From IMG/VR virus record IMGVR_UViG_3300001528_000580, positions 96,001-160,000 of that record: a stretch of 64,000 nt of DNA, one strand, 5' to 3'. The notes beneath the pieces were generated by a model. The model ran no database searches. It saw only the letters and a program-made list of their open reading frames with translations, and had not been told where the DNA came from. Below are positions 36,293-51,278 of the stretch, piece after piece; position 1 is the first letter of the stretch, and every line of letters starts with the position of its first letter. Source of the DNA: a virus (lineage: Duplodnaviria > Caudoviricetes). The translations under genes were made by a program, and so were the position numbers.

Positions 36293-37789
36293 TTAATTTT
36301 TATTTTCAATTTTATAGTTAATAAAATCTCCAATAGTAACATCATAAATTTTCTTGTTGCTATTGTCATTACAAAAATGAACTAATTTTTCTACCATAGA
36401 CAAACGTTCAATAAACGTATTATAATCATAAGTAGATTTACAAAATCTAATTTCTACAGTATTTTCATTAGTGAAATTTACAGCATCACAATGAGCAGAC
36501 GAATCTCTTACTCCCCATTGATCTTCATTTTTATAATGTTTTTGGCAATAACCACCAAATTCTCTTCCCCCTATTTGTTGAAAATAATGTTCGTTATTAT
36601 TCACAATATAATCTAAAAGAGCAATAGAAATATTGTTTTTAAATGCCGTTCTATTTACGTGAAAATGCAGTCCACAATTGTTTACATCATTAACATCATT
36701 TTCATTTAAATGACGAAACAAATCTTTCCATTCATTATTACAATGATATTCGTATGTCGCTGGATGAGAAACAATCTCTACTCCACGAGTACAACTGAGA
36801 CTTCCATCTTGTTTGAAATAAAAGAACTTATTTTTATATACGTTTCTCAAAAAATTATTCCGTTCATATCTTTCATTTCCTTGAATTTCTAATTCAACAC
36901 CAATAAAGATGTTTTTATTTTGACCTACTACGGAATAAAAATGTGGATTAGGTTTATGAAAATAACTGGCAATAGCAATTTGTTCAAAACAACTATCACA
37001 AGGATCATTATGACCATTTTTATCTACATAATGACCACAAGTGTTACACTTTTTTGCATGATTGTTAATACAATTATCACAATACAAATACAAGATAAAT
37101 TCATTTTTTTTCGATATTGGATAATACTTATTACAGTCATAACATTCAAAATACTTGTTGTTGATACACGCAGTACAAAGACGTTTTTTTGTACCATCAA
37201 AAAGTGTGATAGTTTCAATATCATTCAGACTATTACATTCTTCACATGCTTCAAAATCTTTAGCGCACTTATTGCAATAAAATTTATTAATAATCCAATT
37301 TCTATCAACTTTATATTCATTTTTGAAAGTAGTGTCTATGAGACTATCACATTTTTCGCATTGAATAAGATAACTATTTGCACAACGTTTACAATAATAC
37401 CGTCCATTTATCTTAACAGTGTTAGGATTATTTTTCCAAACAATAGTAGTACAACGTTTACAATGTGCGCCAATATTGTTTAAGCATTGCTTACAAATAT
37501 ATTTGTCATTATAAGGATAGATTTCATCCGAAGAATGGTGTTTTCTGCAAGCCATACACTTGTATTTTTTATTTTTATCAAGATGAAAATGATTTTCAAA
37601 GCATTTATTACACATTTTCCAACCTCTAAATCTTCTGAAATTATCTTTGAAATCGTATGTACAGCAATTGCCGCACGAACAAATCTCATCGTTATTATTT
37701 AATTTATCATAACATTCACGACAGATATACTGGTCATTTCCGAAATTATAAAAGAAGGTAATAGTAGCTCCGCAATGACAACATTTCAT
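36293..37789 (-). CDS. putative amidoligase (Amidoligase_2/COOH-NH2 ligase) with ~8 N-terminal Zn fingers
   Basis: IGVELEI, KQDGSL, GVEIVSHP, CGLHFH, TVEIRF; ~16 CxxC; start MKCCHC after RBS. Confidence 0.85.
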   Translation of the reverse strand: MKCCHCGATITFFYNFGNDQYICRECYDKLNNNDEICSCGNCCTYDFKDNFRRFRGWKMCNKCFENHFHLDKNKKYKCMACRKHHSSDEIYPYNDKYICKQCLNNIGAHCKRCTTIVWKNNPNTVKINGRYYCKRCANSYLIQCEKCDSLIDTTFKNEYKVDRNWIINKFYCNKCAKDFEACEECNSLNDIETITLFDGTKKRLCTACINNKYFECYDCNKYYPISKKNEFILYLYCDNCINNHAKKCNTCGHYVDKNGHNDPCDSCFEQIAIASYFHKPNPHFYSVVGQNKNIFIGVELEIQGNERYERNNFLRNVYKNKFFYFKQDGSLSCTRGVEIVSHPATYEYHCNNEWKDLFRHLNENDVNDVNNCGLHFHVNRTAFKNNISIALLDYIVNNNEHYFQQIGGREFGGYCQKHYKNEDQWGVRDSSAHCDAVNFTNENTVEIRFCKSTYDYNTFIERLSMVEKLVHFCNDNSNKKIYDVTIGDFINYKIENKN

Positions 37790-37830
37790 TTTGAATTTCC
37801 TTAAATAAAAAATTCTTGTTTTTGTTTGTA

Positions 37831-37863
37831 ATATACTATACACCAAAAACAAGAAAATACAAG
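37831..37863 (-). promoter_or_regulatory. early promoter of the amidoligase-lipoprotein-M28 operon
   Basis: TTGTAT-16-(TGGTG)TATAGT. Confidence 0.75.
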
Positions 37864-37889
37864 TATATTTTTTATTTTTTTGCTATTTT

Positions 37890-40592: not shown

Positions 40593-41159
40593 TTAATTTA
40601 TTAATTGTGTTTTGATAAAATCAGTTGAGTTCATCCATTGCTTATGTTCTAAAGAATAAACTTCTTCAAGCATTTCAATTAACAACGGGTTGTGGCAAGA
40701 TAAAATAAATTGATTGTTATTTTCACAACTATTTTTAATAGCATTTCCAAGCGTTTTGATTGACCTAATAGATAAAGACATATCAGGTTCATCAAGAATG
40801 ATAAGCGTATTCTTGACTTCTTCTATATGCTTTAAAATTGATTTATTAATTTCTCCATGAGATTTAAAATGTGAAAGTAATGCAAATTCATACAAATTTC
40901 CATCGTTTGCATATTTATCAAGATTACTTGTTCTTGTATTCATTTTTTCAAAATCAAAAAAGATAAAGTTCATTTTATCTTTCATAATAACTTTAATATA
41001 ACTTTTATCTTTATTTTTTGTATGTTCGACGATAGCTTTAATTAAAGAACTTTTGCCACAACCATTATCTCCAACAATAGGATTAATTTTTTTAAATTCA
41101 ATAACTAAATCTTTCTTTAAACATCTAAAATCTTTAACAAATGAAATTTTTTCAAGCAT
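40593..41159 (-). CDS. stand-alone ABC/AAA-type ATPase
   Basis: GDNGCGKS Walker A, SHGE signature, IILDEPD Walker B, SCH H-loop. Confidence 0.85.
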   Translation of the reverse strand: MLEKISFVKDFRCLKKDLVIEFKKINPIVGDNGCGKSSLIKAIVEHTKNKDKSYIKVIMKDKMNFIFFDFEKMNTRTSNLDKYANDGNLYEFALLSHFKSHGEINKSILKHIEEVKNTLIILDEPDMSLSIRSIKTLGNAIKNSCENNNQFILSCHNPLLIEMLEEVYSLEHKQWMNSTDFIKTQLIN

Positions 41160-43675: not shown

Positions 43676-43730
43676 AGTAATACCTCCTATTTTTATTGAT
43701 TACTGGCGACAAGTTTTCCTTGTTTCTACA

Positions 43731-43762
43731 TATACTATACACCTAAAAAAGAAAAAATCAAG
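43731..43762 (-). promoter_or_regulatory. early promoter
   Basis: TTGATT-16-(AGGTG)TATAGT. Confidence 0.75.
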
Positions 43763-43798
43763 TCCTATTTTTAAAAAATTGTTTTTTTCTTTAAATTT

Positions 43799-44818
43799 TT
43801 ATTCATCTAATTCAGAACAAAAATTTTTAAATTTATCAAACAAATCACTTTTGTCAATTAAAATAACATCATTGAAAGATATTGACTTACTAAACGATAC
43901 AATATTCATAATAAACTTTAATCTTTTCATGAATATTTCATAATTGTTAGTTGAATCACAAAATCTCAATTCAATAGTTTTTTCATTAGTTAAATTTACA
44001 GCTTCGCAATGATCGGAACAAAATTTTAACCCCCATTGATTTTCACTTTTTGAAGCTCTTTCACAGTAATCGGTTAATCTTCTCCCACCAATTTTTTGCA
44101 TTAATTCTTCATTATTATTAACAAAATAATCAATAACACGAAGATTTTCTTCATCAAAAAACTTTCTTGATAAATGAAAATGAAGTCCACATCCGTTAAT
44201 ATTACTCATATTATATTTTTGCATAAGAGTAAATATATTTTTCCATTCATTCGATTCAATATGATATCTTAATGTAGCTGGATGTGAAACTATTTCAACA
44301 CCATCCAAACTTAAACTACCATCTGATTTACAATAAACAAAATTATTTTGATTTGATATATCTTTAACAAAATTAATGTTATCATAATTATCAATACATG
44401 GATTAATTTCAAGTTCAATACCAATAAATAAATTGGTTTTTTCATTTTTATTTTTATGGAAAATCGGTTTTGGTTTAAAGAGATAATCATGAATTTTACC
44501 ATTATCATTATTATCATTATCTTTATTAAAACAATCAGAGCAAATTAAATTTCCTGCCATTTTAGTATTTGGCTTTTCTTTATGGCAACGGCTACATTGA
44601 AAATATTCATATTCACAAAATGAGCATACTATTTTATCATTAATATGATATTTTTCAAAGTCATATTCACAATAACTAATCTTACAAGAACTACATTTGT
44701 ATAAACGTGATCTTGCACATTCTTTACAAGAAAATTCAAAACCATTAAATGTGGCAAACTTCCGCATTTCATCTTCATTGTAAGTGTTCTTACAAAAAAA
44801 GCATGTTTTTTGTTCCAT
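43799..44818 (-). CDS. putative amidoligase with 3 Zn fingers
   Basis: IGIELEI, KSDGSL, GVEIVSHP, CGLHFH, TIELRF. Confidence 0.85.
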   Translation of the reverse strand: MEQKTCFFCKNTYNEDEMRKFATFNGFEFSCKECARSRLYKCSSCKISYCEYDFEKYHINDKIVCSFCEYEYFQCSRCHKEKPNTKMAGNLICSDCFNKDNDNNDNGKIHDYLFKPKPIFHKNKNEKTNLFIGIELEINPCIDNYDNINFVKDISNQNNFVYCKSDGSLSLDGVEIVSHPATLRYHIESNEWKNIFTLMQKYNMSNINGCGLHFHLSRKFFDEENLRVIDYFVNNNEELMQKIGGRRLTDYCERASKSENQWGLKFCSDHCEAVNLTNEKTIELRFCDSTNNYEIFMKRLKFIMNIVSFSKSISFNDVILIDKSDLFDKFKNFCSELDE

Positions 44819-44829
44819 AAAATTAATCC

Positions 44830-45819
44830 TTATTTTTTATTTTGATCAATAACTTCCGCAAGTTTATTGAAGCATTCAATATTATTTAAAAATGATACAT
44901 ATAATTTCAATAATTTTCCTTTTCTTGTTACAATATCCTTCTTATCAATAGCTGAAAAAAATCTATTATAATCTTTAATACATATTGCTTTTTCTTTTAA
45001 TGATTTATTGAACATCTTAAAATTGAAAAAAAGTATTAAGGAATAAATAAACATTATTCTAAGATAAAATTCATTAATATCATTTGTTGATTTACAAAAT
45101 CTAAATTCAATTGTATTGGGATTTTCTAAATTTAAAATACAATATCTGTTAAATGTTGTTGAACCCCATTGATCATAATTTTTTCTTATACGTTGACAAT
45201 AATGATTTAATTTTCTTCCACCAATCTTTTCTAACATTTGTACAACTTTGCTATCGTTGATAAATAAATCAAGTAGAAATAATTCTCTTGAAGAAAAAAT
45301 CTCTTTATTTACATGAAAATGTAAACCACAATTTTTGTTTTTTGTCATTTCATATTTATTAATAAGATTAAAAATTTTATCCCATTTTGCATTTCTTAAA
45401 TGAAAATCAAAAGTACCAGGATGGCTTACAATCTCAACACCTTCATCTCCAATTGAACCGTCTCGTTTGAATATAAAAAAATTATTTTTATTAATTTTAT
45501 TACATTCTTTAATAAATTCATTAAAATAATATCCATCACGATTAATTGAATTAATTTCTAATTCAACTCCAATGACTTCTTTATCAACTCCGAATCTTTT
45601 CCACTTTGGCTTATAATAATGTGATTTAATAACATTACATATTGAACAAGTATGCTCAATACATAATCCCAAAAACTTTTTAGGTTTAAAATACCGATGA
45701 CATTTTCCACATCTCTTAAAATATTTTTCAAAACATTCTTCGCATAATGGTATGTTATCTAAATATACAATTTTGCCATATACTTCTTCATTACATTTAT
45801 TGCATTTCATATTTATCAA
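44830..45819 (-). CDS. putative amidoligase with ~2 Zn fingers
   Basis: IGVELEI, KRDGSI, GVEIVSHP, CGLHFH, RYCILN, TIEFRF. Confidence 0.85.
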   Translation of the reverse strand: MINMKCNKCNEEVYGKIVYLDNIPLCEECFEKYFKRCGKCHRYFKPKKFLGLCIEHTCSICNVIKSHYYKPKWKRFGVDKEVIGVELEINSINRDGYYFNEFIKECNKINKNNFFIFKRDGSIGDEGVEIVSHPGTFDFHLRNAKWDKIFNLINKYEMTKNKNCGLHFHVNKEIFSSRELFLLDLFINDSKVVQMLEKIGGRKLNHYCQRIRKNYDQWGSTTFNRYCILNLENPNTIEFRFCKSTNDINEFYLRIMFIYSLILFFNFKMFNKSLKEKAICIKDYNRFFSAIDKKDIVTRKGKLLKLYVSFLNNIECFNKLAEVIDQNKK

Positions 45820-46549
45820 AATCTTCTTTTTTAAGGTATTTCATTTTAAAATCAATTACAAATTCCTTAAACATATTGTAAATTTTTTCAGCAGAGTTAG
45901 ATGTAATTTCTGAAAAAGAATGACGCTTACAAAAATGTGCAATACAATAAATTAATTCCATACGTTTAAAAAATGTAGCCATGTGACTTGTTGTATTACA
46001 AAATCTTAATTCAATGGTTGAATTTGTAACGTGAAATGCAGAGAAATGATCTACATCTACACGACCCCATTCACTAATATTTTTCATTCTCCTATTAGAA
46101 TAAGATGAAAAATCTCTCCCACCAATAAAGGTAACGAAATTTGCTATTTTATTGTAGTTATTAATGAAGAAATCAATAGTTTTAATATTATCAGAATCAA
46201 AAAATGTTTTACTAAGATGGAAGTGAAGCCCACAACCATTACCATATGTGATCTTATATTTCTTAATATTATTGAAAATATTCTTCCATTCAAAGCAATT
46301 TTCATGAAATTTTATAGTTGCAGGATGGCTTACAATTTCAACACCGTTATAAACAGTACAATCTTCTTTGAAATAGATAAAATCTTCATCTTGATTAACA
46401 TTACTTAAAAAATCATTTAACATTCCATTTTCGCAATTATCAGTTGTTGTATTAACTTCTAATTCTACTCCGATAAAAAAATCATCTTTACATTTACCAT
46501 AAAAGACAAACTCATCTGGACGATATGAATCATAATGTATTTTTTTCAT
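45797..46549 (-). CDS. putative amidoligase, catalytic domain only
   Basis: IGVELEV, KEDCT, GVEIVSHP, CGLHFH, TIELRF. Confidence 0.83.
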   Translation of the reverse strand: MKKIHYDSYRPDEFVFYGKCKDDFFIGVELEVNTTTDNCENGMLNDFLSNVNQDEDFIYFKEDCTVYNGVEIVSHPATIKFHENCFEWKNIFNNIKKYKITYGNGCGLHFHLSKTFFDSDNIKTIDFFINNYNKIANFVTFIGGRDFSSYSNRRMKNISEWGRVDVDHFSAFHVTNSTIELRFCNTTSHMATFFKRMELIYCIAHFCKRHSFSEITSNSAEKIYNMFKEFVIDFKMKYLKKEDFDKYEMQ

Positions 46550-46558
46550 TTTAATTTC

Positions 46559-47296
46559 CTAAATAATATTTTTGTTTTTCAAAAGTGTTTTGATATATAA
46601 AGATTCTTCAAATCCGTTATTATTCAAAAAATCAACAAACATTTTGATATTATTTTTTACAGCAATATCAATAAAACTAGTTTGTTTAACAAATAATATA
46701 ATATTTCTAACAATAAATAATTTTTGTAAAAACATATTATATTGTGTTGGAGATAAGAAAAATCTCAATTCAATAGTTTCACTGTTTGTTAAATTAATTG
46801 CGTCACAATGATCGGAAATTACAGAAGAACCCCAATCATGAAATCTTTTATTTCTTCTTTTACAGTAATATCCAAATTCTCTATCTCCAAATGCTTCCAT
46901 CATTTCTTTATTATTATTAATAAAAAAATCAAGTGTTGCAATATTATCAATAGAGAATCCATTTTTGTTAATGTGAAAATGAAGTCCACAACCAGTATTA
47001 TCATACATCATTGTTTCTGATAAAATATCATATAATTTTTTCCATTTATTACTTTTAAGATGAAAGTCAAATGAAGCCGGATGACTTACAATCTCTATTC
47101 CTTTGCTACCAATACTTGCATCATTTTTACAATAGAAAAAACTATCGTTATCTAACATATATGAACATGTATATTTATCTTCTCCAATAATTTCCAGTTC
47201 AATGCCATAAAATTCATTGATATTTTTATTTAATCTTTTTTCTTCATCAGTTGTGAAAAATATTGGTTCAGGTTTAAAGCTATGTGACTGAATCAT
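46559..47296 (-). CDS. putative amidoligase, catalytic domain only
   Basis: YGIELEI, KNDAS, GIEIVSHP, CGLHFH, TIELRF. Confidence 0.85.
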   Translation of the reverse strand: MIQSHSFKPEPIFFTTDEEKRLNKNINEFYGIELEIIGEDKYTCSYMLDNDSFFYCKNDASIGSKGIEIVSHPASFDFHLKSNKWKKLYDILSETMMYDNTGCGLHFHINKNGFSIDNIATLDFFINNNKEMMEAFGDREFGYYCKRRNKRFHDWGSSVISDHCDAINLTNSETIELRFFLSPTQYNMFLQKLFIVRNIILFVKQTSFIDIAVKNNIKMFVDFLNNNGFEESLYIKTLLKNKNII

Positions 47297-47312
47297 TTTA
47301 ATACCTTTAAAG

Positions 47313-48638
47313 TTAAATAGCTACTTCAAGAATTTCAACATTTTCCATCGATTTATTTGATTCCAAAAATGATTCAAACATTTTTATATTATCTTCAGTA
47401 ATAATTTCTTTGAATGTAACATTCATTGAAAAATTAACAATATCATGGATAAAATTAAGTCTTTTCATGAATGTAGTATAATCAGGTGTTGATTTACAGA
47501 ATCTCAATTCAATAGTTTCACTATTAGTCAGATTAACTGCATCACAATGACGAGAAGAATAGCTCATTCCCCAATTATTCATATCCTTTTCACGAGATGA
47601 GCAGTACCCATCCAGTTTTCTACCACCAATGTTAGCGATAAATTCAGGATTATTATTGACAAAATAATCTAATACACGAATTGCTTCTTCTGTAAAGAAA
47701 TTTCTGCTAATATGAAAATGTAAACCACAATTTTCAATATTATCCATACCATTGTTTTCAAGAATATCAAAAATTTTGTTCCAAATATTTGTTTTAGTAT
47801 GAAAATCAAAAGTACCAGGATGACTTACAATCTCAACACCATTATCTCCAATTGAACCATCATGCTTACAATAAACAAAGTCAATGTTATTGTTCAAATC
47901 ATAAGCGCAACAACTACGATCAGCGCCACGAATTTCTAATTCTACACCAATAAAAAGTTTGGTATATTCTCCATCATACCGTCTAAAACATGGTTCTGGC
48001 TTATATTCATATGGATAAATACCTTCTTCATCCTCTCCACCAGTTTCTTCATAACAATCATTACAAAGATTAGAACAACAGCTTTCCTGATCATTCGGAA
48101 AGAGTTGATCGCATCTTTCACACTGGAAAAAATATTCCCTACGACAATCATCACAAATGTAATTATTATCATAGTCAGTATTTGAATCTTCATATGGGCA
48201 AAATTCACCACATTCATTGCATTTAAAATGTGTTTTATCAATGCAATCAGCACAAATATGTTTGCAATCTGATGTTCTTATAATGTCATCGTTATTAAAA
48301 TGTTTTTGACAACTTTCACAAAAACTATACTCTTCAATACAGTTTTCGCATACCATCCCAATATTTTCTACATAATAATAATTGTCATTAATGGTATCAA
48401 TTTTTTCTCCACACTCTTCACAACAAGGTATCTCATTGTAACAGTCGGAACAATAGATATTTCCTTTGAACTCATTAATGTCTTCGGTCAACACGTCATC
48501 GCATTTTTCACATTTAGGAAGATTGTTATAACAATCGTCACAATAATGAAAATTTTTTACATTGTTATCTTCATTGTTATTAAATTGCTTTTCGCAATTA
48601 GAACAGACAAACATGTTTTTTTCATCTTCGTGCAACAT
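47313..48638 (-). CDS. putative amidoligase with 6 acidic Zn fingers
   Basis: 12 CxxC; IGVELEI, KHDGSI, GVEIVSHP, CGLHFH, TIELRF. Confidence 0.87.
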   Translation of the reverse strand: MLHEDEKNMFVCSNCEKQFNNNEDNNVKNFHYCDDCYNNLPKCEKCDDVLTEDINEFKGNIYCSDCYNEIPCCEECGEKIDTINDNYYYVENIGMVCENCIEEYSFCESCQKHFNNDDIIRTSDCKHICADCIDKTHFKCNECGEFCPYEDSNTDYDNNYICDDCRREYFFQCERCDQLFPNDQESCCSNLCNDCYEETGGEDEEGIYPYEYKPEPCFRRYDGEYTKLFIGVELEIRGADRSCCAYDLNNNIDFVYCKHDGSIGDNGVEIVSHPGTFDFHTKTNIWNKIFDILENNGMDNIENCGLHFHISRNFFTEEAIRVLDYFVNNNPEFIANIGGRKLDGYCSSREKDMNNWGMSYSSRHCDAVNLTNSETIELRFCKSTPDYTTFMKRLNFIHDIVNFSMNVTFKEIITEDNIKMFESFLESNKSMENVEILEVAI

Positions 48639-48690
48639 TTTTTATTCCTCTTTTTTAAAAAATATAGCTTGAACTTTCCTTTATACAGTA

Positions 48691-48722
48691 TATACTATAC
48701 CATAAAATTAGAAAAATTCAAG
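48691..48722 (-). promoter_or_regulatory. promoter of the five-amidoligase operon
   Basis: TTGAAT-16-(TGG)TATAGT. Confidence 0.7.
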
Positions 48723-48739
48723 CTGTATTATTAAAAAAT

Positions 48740-49714
48740 TCATTTTTTTTGCCGTAACAAAAGACAATCACAGCATATTTTTTTATTTACATCTTCAATT
48801 AACAAAGAATTATGATATTCTTTATTACATTCATCACAAGTAAAGAATTGTTTACTGATAGGAAGACTATCAATACCATATTCATCATAGCAATTCCAGC
48901 AAAAATCTTTTTTACCGATAGTTATTCCACCATAATCATCAAATCTTTCGTCACAAATACAACAAGTGGACAATTCTTTATGAATTTTACTGCCTCTTGT
49001 AAATCCAAGCATATTAATTTTGGTTCTCCAATTATCTTCATAGTCATGATTGGAATAAAAAACGCCATTATTGTTAATCCAATTACCAAATATTTTCCAT
49101 ATTCCATCATCTTTGAGAATAGCTATTTTATTATATCCAATTTCTCTACTAATTTGCTTTTGATATTTTGTTGAACCATTAATAGTTTCTTTAATCATAA
49201 ATTCCAAATTTTTATTAGGACTATCATTAATTAAATATTCCCACAAACTTTTTTCATTATTGGAATTTATATAAGTATCATTCAGCTCTTCAAACATCTT
49301 TAATGTAAAAAGCATTGTATCTGAAATAGTTCCTGTTGGATCGTATTTTTTAAAAGTAAATTTGGGATAGTGCAAAATACCGTTATGAATAAGTCCATAA
49401 CCATTGAAAGAAATATTCTTTTTTCTCAAATCAGAAATTGAATTTGTAATCGGAAAAGGATGGGTATTTCCTCCATCCCTTAATCCATGAGTTGCAATAC
49501 GAAAGTGAATAAATATAGTGTCTTGTTCAGTAAAATTTTCTGAACAAAATGCAGTATAGAAATCTTCAAAACTCATATACCCTTTTTTAATATGAAGTTG
49601 ATTGTTCCTAACAAACATGAATCCTGCACCATCAGGATTATTATTGAAACAATTTAAGAAAGATGCACGGTCAGGAATTTCAACATTTTTGGGTTTTACG
49701 ATAGCTATACACAT
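48740..49714 (-). CDS. class II (Ntn) glutamine amidotransferase with 2 C-terminal Zn fingers
   Basis: N-terminal MC nucleophile, NPDGAG, HFRIATHG, NTHPF, HNG, SDT; CCIC..CWNC, CDEC..CCDC. Confidence 0.9.
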   Translation of the reverse strand: MCIAIVKPKNVEIPDRASFLNCFNNNPDGAGFMFVRNNQLHIKKGYMSFEDFYTAFCSENFTEQDTIFIHFRIATHGLRDGGNTHPFPITNSISDLRKKNISFNGYGLIHNGILHYPKFTFKKYDPTGTISDTMLFTLKMFEELNDTYINSNNEKSLWEYLINDSPNKNLEFMIKETINGSTKYQKQISREIGYNKIAILKDDGIWKIFGNWINNNGVFYSNHDYEDNWRTKINMLGFTRGSKIHKELSTCCICDERFDDYGGITIGKKDFCWNCYDEYGIDSLPISKQFFTCDECNKEYHNSLLIEDVNKKICCDCLLLRQKK

Positions 49715-49744: not shown

Positions 49745-49776
49745 TATAAAATACACGTGTTTCTTGTTTTTTCAAG
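49745..49776 (-). promoter_or_regulatory. promoter of the GATase gene
   Basis: TTGAAA-16-(GTG)TATTTT. Confidence 0.6.
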
Positions 49777-50197: not shown

Positions 50198-51278
50198 ATG
50201 AATTTTAAAAAAATATCATAAATATTATAAATATAAATTTTATCTAGATATAAATTCTAGTTATCAAATTAACACAAAACATTACAATTGGATAGTTAAA
50301 TAATTTATAATCAAATTTTTATGTTATATACTGTAATTTAATATTATAATCTGATGATATTAAAAAAAACAAATAATAATTTATGTTTACTATATTAAAA
50401 GATATTTAATAGAACTTTAAAAGTTATAAATGTATGATTAGATTATTAAAATATATTAAGTATATAATAACTTATTAAAATGATATATAAATGTTATAAA
50501 TCATTTTTTAATAATAAAAAGTTAGATATAAAATTAAGAATATAAAAATTTAAAAATTATAAACATAAAATCTTTACATTAAAAAATCATAATTTAAGTT
50601 GACATAGAATAATAAAGTAATAATTTAATAAAAAATATAGATATTTTAAGAATTAATATTTTAAGAATTAATATTTTCAAAATATCTATATTAAATATTA
50701 AAAGAATAAGTATAAACAGAAATAGAAATAGTTTAGGATAATTATATTCAATAATTATTACGGATTTAGAAGAAACTAAAAGAATAAATGCTACTGGTAA
50801 ATCAGTGGGTTTTGACTTTGGTTTAAAAACTTTTTTAACCGCTAGTGATTATGAAGATATAAAAGCTCCTTTATATTTAATAAAAAACATCAAGAAGTTA
50901 AAAAAGTTAAGTAAAAATTTTTCTAAAATAGTTAAAGGTAGTAATAATTATAATAAAGCAAGGCTTTGCCTTGCAAGATTACATAAGAAAATATGTAACC
51001 AAAGAAATGATTTTTTATTTAAAGTTGCATTAGAAATAATTAGAAAATATGATATTATATTTTTAGAAACTTTAGATTTAGAAGCTATGAAAAAAAGATT
51101 TGGAAGAAAAATTAATGATTTAGGTTTTAATAACTTCTTAGAAATTTTAAAACAAAAAGCTAGTATTTATCACAAAAATATAATATTTAAAGATAAATAT
51201 TTTCCAAGTAGCAAAACTTGTAGTAATTGTGGATTTGTAAATAAAGATCTCAAGTTAAATGATAGAGAGTGGATATGA
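50198..51278 (+). pseudogene. tnpB: degenerate IS200/IS605-type tnpB
   Basis: intact 3' part (TGKSVGFDFGLKTFLTASD, LETL, FPSSKTCSNCG..DREW) stops before the second CxxC and RuvC-III; 5' part recognisable (YKYKFY, YKSFF, FTLK, NSLG*LY) but full of stops. Confidence 0.8.

Follow-up and report, generated by a model that had tools for sequence, protein, structure and literature searches.

The genome of an uncultured gut phage in IMG/VR record IMGVR_UViG_3300001528_000580 (Caudoviricetes; 440,868 bases, 25% G+C, terminal repeats, rated complete) encodes a greatly expanded set of putative amide-forming ligases and glutamine amidotransferase (GATase)-like proteins. Part of it forms a tandem array in the 64,000-nucleotide stretch analyzed here (bases 96001–160000, "the window"), where five consecutive ligase genes, L1 to L5, follow a GATase gene and a sixth ligase gene, L6, lies apart (Table 1). 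While the pair of ligase and GATase is itself known, the size of the expansion, the conservation of catalytically dead copies and a histidine variant at a putative arginine-finger position appear to be new; no report of any of them was found in the literature, subscription journals being mostly outside the coverage of this and the other literature searches. It is probable that the proteins form a parallel, target-specific panel, whichever chemistry applies; the reading tentatively preferred is that they are parallel, target-specific γ-glutamyl writers and erasers aimed by variable zinc-ribbon arrays.

Extent of the expansion

A profile built from the six window ligases and run over the complete genome identified 18 ligase paralogs, of which one (C1:271187) is dead and the other 17 keep their metal and ExR motifs, alongside 13 GATase paralogs, of which ten are intact and three lack the nucleophile. 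A preliminary description of the window, which counted six ligases and one GATase, thus captured only a fraction of the family, although its idea of a diversified ligase panel holds. Ligases and GATases together occupy 32.4 kb, or 7.3% of the 441-kb genome. Most ligases carry 4–16 CxxC motifs at the N-terminus and most GATases 4–11 at the C-terminus; net charges range from −33 to +15.

Twelve ligases are scattered over the genome outside the window. Five intact GATases form an array free of ligases (C1:231928-237111; L062:3928-9111), which directly follows a candidate Cas12a-like gene (C1:227292-230852; putative, from its N-terminal sequence). A second, mixed cluster (C1:270183-286947; L063:2183-18947) begins with an active-type ligase, the dead ligase, an inserted ATPase-like gene, a dead GATase and two active-type GATases, and continues with a dead GATase, two ligases, a GATase, a ligase, a short dead GATase and, later, another ligase. 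The intact members are therefore not paired one to one (17 versus 10, in separate arrays). The earlier proposal that a single ammonia-generating GATase feeds six ligases fails because ten intact GATases exist, five of them without a ligase beside them.

The array ligases are consecutive minus-strand open reading frames (ORFs) with intergenic gaps of −23 to 16 nt, located where the preliminary description had placed them, and each contains the motifs G[VI]ELE, KxD, G[VI]EIVSHP, CGLHFH and TIExRF; the sixth paralog at 36293 is likewise confirmed, its final motif being TVEIRF. Previously missed were the N-terminal CxxC arrays of three of the five array ligases (12, 0, 0, 4 and 6 motifs from L1 to L5). 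The catalytic domains of the window ligases share 34–49% pairwise identity; this divergence, together with the recurrence of the array in independent assemblies (see below), rules out an assembly artifact or a recent tandem duplication.

Fold and family of the ligases

From profile and model comparisons, the ligases are assigned to the Amidoligase_2 family (PF12224) of the Marvin gp105/gp106 type, with the fold of glutamine synthetase (GS), GCS2 and PafA, as had been predicted. The AlphaFold (AF2) model of L2, of very high confidence (pLDDT, the predicted local distance difference test, 97.3), has a GS-type fold and matches YbdK (Z 11.2, root-mean-square deviation 3.8, 210 aligned residues), E. 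coli GS (Z 10.6), Dop (Z 9.3) and PafA (Z 8.8), and weakly GatB/GatE (Z 4.0–4.6); all 18 chains with a Z score of at least 8 belong to the carboxylate-amine ligase superfamily. The closest viral structures are the Marvin/Tesla-type amidoligases (TM-score 0.82 to the Tesla homolog). PF12224 is matched by L4 with 28.2 bits (cut-off 22), by L2 with 21.7 bits (E = 2e-4) and by 50 of 63 aligned ligase homologs, and the best ESM Atlas match (0.97) is a PF12224 cluster; L1 and L5 are placed in the family through 38–50% identity to other ligases and not by a Pfam match of their own.

Motifs described for the superfamily, namely GhExE on strand 1, acidic residues on strands 2 and 3, HxH on strand 4 and ExR on strand 6 (PMC2588565), are present in all six window ligases and in 17 of 18 genome-wide, within a minimal catalytic domain of 245 residues which is far shorter than GS, GCS or PafA. 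A profile alignment of the ligases to YbdK (hhalign) was confined to the HxH strand, and a sequence search of the PDB found no solved relative. PADLOC and NCBIfam gave no match for the ligases, and the Zn array gave only leads below 0.9 (LIM-like) in the ESM Atlas.

A histidine variant at a putative arginine-finger position

The preliminary description held that every array ligase keeps the full signature of the fold; all the motifs it listed are there, but at a putative arginine-finger position four of the five array ligases, and L6 as well, have His. At this position, the Arg of a family RxxxxN motif, 58 of 62 outside homologs and 149 of 151 ungapped distant hits have Arg or Lys. His replaces it in L1, L2, L3, L5, L6 and the ligase at C1:178609, usually with Asp or Glu two residues further on, while L4 keeps Arg. 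Most orthologs retain the His; the ortholog of L3 in locus L108 has Lys.

Arginine fingers in the superfamily are found at strand 5 and in the preceding loop, and are absent from GatB/GatE (PMC2588565). The RxxxxN Arg aligns weakly with Arg344 of GS (hhalign probability 5%), and motif spacing gives Arg339 as the alternative; both GS residues are candidate arginine fingers in the sense of PMC2588565. The loop arginine may correspond to an invariant Arg further upstream (residue 139 in L2). Judged from these alignments, the array appears to be a chemically distinct sub-clade whose signature is not fully canonical.

The amidotransferase-like proteins

The protein encoded at 48740-49714 is predicted, from sequence and model, to belong to the class II GATases, which are N-terminal nucleophile (Ntn) enzymes. 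As described earlier, it combines a Zn-finger region with a Cys nucleophile at position 2: it begins Met-Cys and carries four C-terminal CxxC motifs. The modeled fold is that of class II Ntn enzymes, with practically tied scores to GlmS (Z 12.9), EgtC (Z 12.4) and PurF (Z 11.7). Among 41 aligned GATases the Cys, the HxRxxT motif, HNG (the NG of the oxyanion hole) and SDT (its Asp) are invariant. The Arg that GlmS and PurF have at the RGxDxxG position is absent in 38 of the 41 and present in three. GATase_4, the stand-alone YafJ/EgtC family, matches 25 of the 41 and GATase_6 matches 13. No membrane-like segment was seen in the 26 intact ligase and GATase paralogs tested.

Conservation in related phages

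The array recurs in the same order in independent assemblies: in L109 with 86–99% identity, in L139/L140 with 47–69% and a sixth ligase inserted, and in L108 and L110, partially, with 48–59%. Each array gene has its positional ortholog as its best match (L1 in L108, L109, L110 and L139; L3 in L108, L109 and L139; L5 in L109 and L139), and L6 has a relative in L137. Gene position, CxxC count and mostly also the active-site variant are kept between orthologs. The ratio of nonsynonymous to synonymous substitution (dN/dS) is 0.06–0.49 against L109 and roughly 0.17–0.45 against L139, where dS is near saturation; purifying selection was found on every copy and relaxed selection was not seen, which rules out pseudogene decay. 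Since orthologs under purifying selection retain position, CxxC count and variant, the copies are not redundant, and such stable orthology suggests fixed sub-functions more than a fast arms race. L133 also has the second cluster, dead ligase and two dead GATases included, but lacks four of its genes; part of the cluster is found in L138, which translates only with TAG read as Gln. The dead ligase has a dN/dS of 0.23 in L141.

L4 and L1 share a stretch of about 50 nt at 97% identity (window:45400-45463 and 47799-47862, over the GVEIVSHP motif) where the L109 ortholog of L4 differs; it is probably a short, recent gene conversion. Concerted evolution is ruled out, as just this one short patch is shared. 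Towards the end of the L5 ortholog (L109:5624-6625) identity falls from about 99% to 60–80% over the final 60 codons or so, which likely reflects recombination with a diverged allele.

Pairing and copy number elsewhere

The ligase profile has 8,613 representatives at 50% clustering (E <1e-30). In 43 virus records, mostly of small phages and 17 of them near-complete, one ligase copy was found in 38, two in four and three in one, so that the presumed rarity of multi-copy arrays is borne out. The complete 69-kb phage G040 (L036) shows a small expansion of its own, independent of this one, with three ligases and GATases in alternation. Of 101 outside ligase loci (a redundant set), 86 also contain a GATase, usually right behind the ligase; across 58 loci no third conserved neighbor was found beside the pair.

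All 13 phage GATases fall on one side of a branch with support 99. In a quick tree of the ligases, an equally supported branch parts the 18 phage ligases from 59 of 62 outside rows, while the other three, which have long branches, sit on the phage side; AT-rich composition may help to cluster the phage paralogs. The trees suggest that the expansion is specific to this phage lineage.

Comparison with known systems

The pair has been described for mycobacteriophage Marvin (gp105/gp106) and for the OM43 phages (MEP401/MEP402; PHROG 16683), and the published statements on it are predictions (PMC10580990, PMC11706807). By sequence, the module of the present phage is best regarded as a member of this Marvin-type two-gene module and not of the phiEco32 cassette. 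It shares with the Marvin-type pair the ligase subfamily (by structure and tblastn), CxxC motifs on both proteins, an adjacent class II GATase and the lack of a third conserved gene. It differs in that the Marvin type is one pair with the ligase first, while here 18 and 13 copies stand in arrays, the window array being GATase-first, with conserved dead copies and a His-variant sub-clade.

The phiEco32/LUZ24 cassette, taken as closest template in the preliminary description, likewise has an Amidoligase_2 gene and a class II GATase of predicted function; according to PMC3890496, it links COOH-NH2_lig (PF14395), an ATP-grasp protein and a γ-glutamyl cyclotransferase (GGCT), and no such linkage was found here. 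PF14395 had no match in the genome (the control matched nowhere either), nor had the YheC/D-type ATP-grasp PF14398, and no GGCT is linked to the array; phiEco32-type ligases are also structurally more distant from L2 (TM-score ~0.5). The template is therefore set aside. The genome does have a GGACT (AIG2-like) gene at C1:210412-210771 and R2K ATP-grasp genes at C1:43118-43825 and 223325-224032, all far from the ligase arrays. GGACT was rejected as a core partner, being present in 2 of 22 ligase-bearing genomes.

Among cellular systems, PafA and Dop of pupylation (Z 8.8–9.3) are GS-fold carboxylate-amine ligases which act on macromolecules with a logic of writer and eraser; here the putative eraser is instead an Ntn hydrolase, Zn arrays are present and the catalytic domain is much smaller. 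No Pup or proteasome genes were seen near the ligases, and no small conserved ORF (≥60 aa) in the window or the 58 loci. EgtA/EgtC, like the present pair, combine a GS-fold γ-glutamyl ligase with a class II Ntn deglutamylating enzyme (PMC9103826); they differ in serving a small-molecule pathway with three further enzymes, in single copy and without Zn arrays, and the EgtC profile matches one of the 41 GATases. GatB/GatE, finally, use the GS fold to amidate a macromolecule-bound carboxylate with ammonia from a partner, without arginine fingers (PMC2588565); their structural match is weak, their amidase partner is different and no tRNA-binding tail was recognized here.

Organization of the window genes and their surroundings

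Table 1. Ligase and GATase genes of the window and associated promoter-like sites.
Feature	Position	Strand	Description
GATase	48740..49714	−	class II (Ntn) glutamine amidotransferase-like, 324 aa; Cys2 nucleophile; 4 C-terminal CxxC; one of 13 paralogs
GATase promoter-like site	49748..49775	−	TTGAAA-N16-TATTTT; consensus match only
Array promoter-like site	48694..48721	−	TTGAAT-N16-TATAGT, ahead of ligase array; consensus match only
Ligase L1	47313..48638	−	441 aa; N-terminal array of 12 CxxC, net charge −33; His variant
Ligase L2	46559..47296	−	245 aa; bare catalytic domain without Zn array; His variant
Ligase L3	45797..46549	−	250 aa; bare catalytic domain; His variant, family Asn also changed to His
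Ligase L4	44830..45810	−	326 aa from ATG (45819, alternative start); 4 CxxC; family Arg kept
Ligase L5	43799..44818	−	339 aa; 6 CxxC; His variant
Ligase L6	36293..37789	−	498 aa, ATG start; 16 CxxC (basic array); own promoter-like site; His variant

The preliminary description placed the array under one promoter. A promoter-like site does precede the ligases, but it sits between them and the GATase, which has a promoter-like site of its own. Sigma-70-like matches as a class are not enriched (171 versus 170.9 expected from shuffles), and the array site can therefore be taken as a consensus match only. Its upstream motif recurs at 37816-37889, before L6, and at 43715-43788, before a DUF932 gene; the TTG start given for L6 by the ORF finder (37852) falls within the promoter-like site of this gene, and the ATG was used instead. 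The DUF932 gene (window:42698-43675) ends at a strong terminator (42684-42651) and follows the array in L139 too, with 86% identity.

On the other side of the array, window:49715-52510 is very AT-rich (17% G+C), shows a switch in GC skew and contains a truncated IS605-type TnpB/OrfB gene (50805-51278). Near L6 lie genes for an M28 peptidase and an AAA_21/SMC-like ATPase (window:34634-35320 and 40593-41159). A full-length formate-tetrahydrofolate ligase gene (window:54999-56669), syntenic in L139, has about 51% identity to its best bacterial matches; assignment of a host from this protein and GroEL failed, the best identities being 51% and 55%. Elsewhere in the genome, six paralogous DNA methyltransferase-like genes (C1:309482-335861), one read as an N6/N4 methyltransferase, form a second expanded family, and a tRNA with a CTA anticodon (C1:256421-256495) is found among 33 tRNAs, yet the phage uses the standard code. 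In its major capsid protein the phage shares 61% identity with the uncultured huge phage LR745208 and 39% with Bacillus phage G. The ligase is absent from LR745208, the sole complete genome related by this protein, and from the related IMG/VR records, which are fragments of 1–31% completeness. Gut metagenomes from three studies, pig and bovine ones among them, contain the window stretch (word shares 0.41–0.51).

Proposed function and alternatives

In the established chemistry of the superfamily, ATP phosphorylates a carboxylate, usually the γ-carboxylate of glutamate, and an amine displaces the phosphate. By extension from the superfamily, each phage ligase would use ATP and metal ions to phosphorylate the γ-carboxylate of glutamate and would then join it to an amine; less securely, this amine would be on a cytoplasmic macromolecule, most likely a host or phage protein. 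The N-terminal CxxC arrays would choose the acceptor, a partner subunit doing so for the two bare ligases, and the Cys-Ntn proteins, with variable CxxC arrays of their own, would hydrolyze the γ-glutamyl amide again as erasers and would not be a shared ammonia source. The His-variant ligases of the array would be a specialized sub-clade with altered or regulated chemistry. That the targets are macromolecules chosen by Zn arrays is suggested by the architecture; a minimal catalytic domain with variable arrays on both enzymes fits macromolecular substrates.

To ligate free glutamate with ammonia taken from glutamine would presumably be a futile cycle; therefore either a larger carboxylate substrate receives ammonia from the GATase, or glutamate is ligated to an amine of the target and the GATase takes it off. 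Ligation and removal is the favored option, with some reserve, because there are ten intact GATases with variable Zn arrays and no one-to-one pairing, because the GlmS/PurF Arg is missing and YafJ is resembled, and because precedents exist. EgtC is a class II Ntn enzyme that takes off a glutamyl group beside a GS-fold ligase (PMC9103826), and beside related ligases the neighbor alternates between a GATase-like peptidase and a γ-glutamyl cyclotransferase (PMC2588565); the cyclotransferase cannot donate ammonia. Ten intact GATases with different arrays are hard to explain by glutamine splitting alone.

Several observations weigh against writers and erasers. Among NCBIfam profiles GlmS matches 27 of the 41 GATases and EgtC one, so that GlmS fits at least as well as EgtC, with structural scores tied. 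For the partner in PMC2588565, a thiol peptidase, no class is given, and it need not be class II, and GGACT co-occurs in just two of the ligase-bearing phages. In single-pair phages the gap between ligase and GATase is ≤50 nt in 53 of 76, which fits one-to-one channeling of ammonia equally well. A role of the Zn arrays in targeting is putative, and in a single close comparison their dN/dS of 0.05–0.4 gives no sign of positive selection. The change from Arg to His could mean reduced activity, and no measured substrate, product or activity was found in the literature for any family member.

The main rival, somewhat doubtful on present evidence, is a panel of glutamine-dependent amidotransferases resembling GatCAB or GatDE, in which ammonia from the GATases would be channeled to ligases amidating carboxylates on macromolecules (protein Glu/Asp or C-termini, aminoacyl-tRNA, modified bases), several GATases serving different sets of ligases. 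This would agree with the invariance of every glutaminase residue, with GlmS and PurF being among the best profile and fold matches, with the adjacency of ligase and GATase at the outside loci, often with translational coupling, and with the lack of the two arginine fingers in GatB/GatE (PMC2588565), provided that the array His variants are counted as keeping neither. For a single substrate, glutamine, ten diverged donors that differ in their Zn arrays would be more than is needed, however, and neither the uneven pairing nor the missing GlmS/PurF Arg is expected. Chemistry on small molecules or nucleic acids, that is, γ-glutamylation or amidation of metabolites, immune signals, polyamines, cell-wall precursors or DNA and tRNA bases, is clearly less probable. 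Most characterized members of the fold do act on small molecules (PMC2588565), some viral contigs combine thymidine-hypermodification genes with genes for an amidoligase and an amidotransferase (PMC8989533), and the function first proposed was modification of the cell wall (as cited in PMC10580990); yet no third gene is conserved beside the pair, and long variable Zn arrays on both enzymes in 18 ligase copies would not be expected for one or two metabolites. That a virus assigned to the Poseidoniales, which are archaea, also has the pair (PMC11706807) speaks against peptidoglycan as a general target and, with the lack of membrane segments, against the cell envelope as the default target assumed earlier.

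Hardly more credible, indeed marginally less so, is a hetero-oligomeric machine or binding panel whose folds mainly serve as scaffolds displaying Zn arrays, as decoys, inhibitors or sponges for host factors, with only some subunits catalytic. In its favor, every catalytic residue is gone from one ligase and three GATases, the dead ligase and two dead GATases hold their positions in the diverged L133 and L138, and two array ligases have no Zn array; GS-fold enzymes often oligomerize (PMC2588565). Against it, all but one of the 18 ligases and ten of the 13 GATases keep their metal and nucleophile residues across near-saturated dS, which suggests that catalysis matters in most. The least probable alternative is an assembly line, also raised in the preliminary description, in which a single product, peptide-like or amidated several times, would be built by the five array ligases one after the other. 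The gene order kept in L108, L109, L110 and L139, the one promoter-like site before all five and the differences at the arginine-finger position, as pathway steps might show, speak for it; it is weakened by the gain and loss of members between relatives (the insertion in L139/L140, the four genes missing from the second cluster in L133), by 12 further scattered ligases, by the single ligase with which most phages manage and by the lack of any linked carrier, precursor or tailoring gene.

Implications

In its fullest form, which is rather unlikely to hold in every part, the reading of target-specific writers and erasers would amount to a multi-target, reversible post-translational code, in which 17 active Zn-array-guided ligases and ten active Ntn erasers, tuned by conserved pseudo-enzyme subunits and including a new His-variant GS-fold chemistry, disarm or rewire host factors in parallel. 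The ligase subfamily is very large and nearly always paired with a GATase, and since 2008–2009 has been the subject of predictions alone. A phage that spends 7% of its genome on 31 diverged and selected copies points to a chemistry useful against many targets and not to one housekeeping step. Bare 245-residue domains, arrays of 4 to 16 CxxC motifs, Arg and His variants and conserved dead copies make up a natural test set, and if the writer-eraser reading is true, the pair would represent an undescribed phage protein-modification system and a source of programmable amide-forming enzymes.

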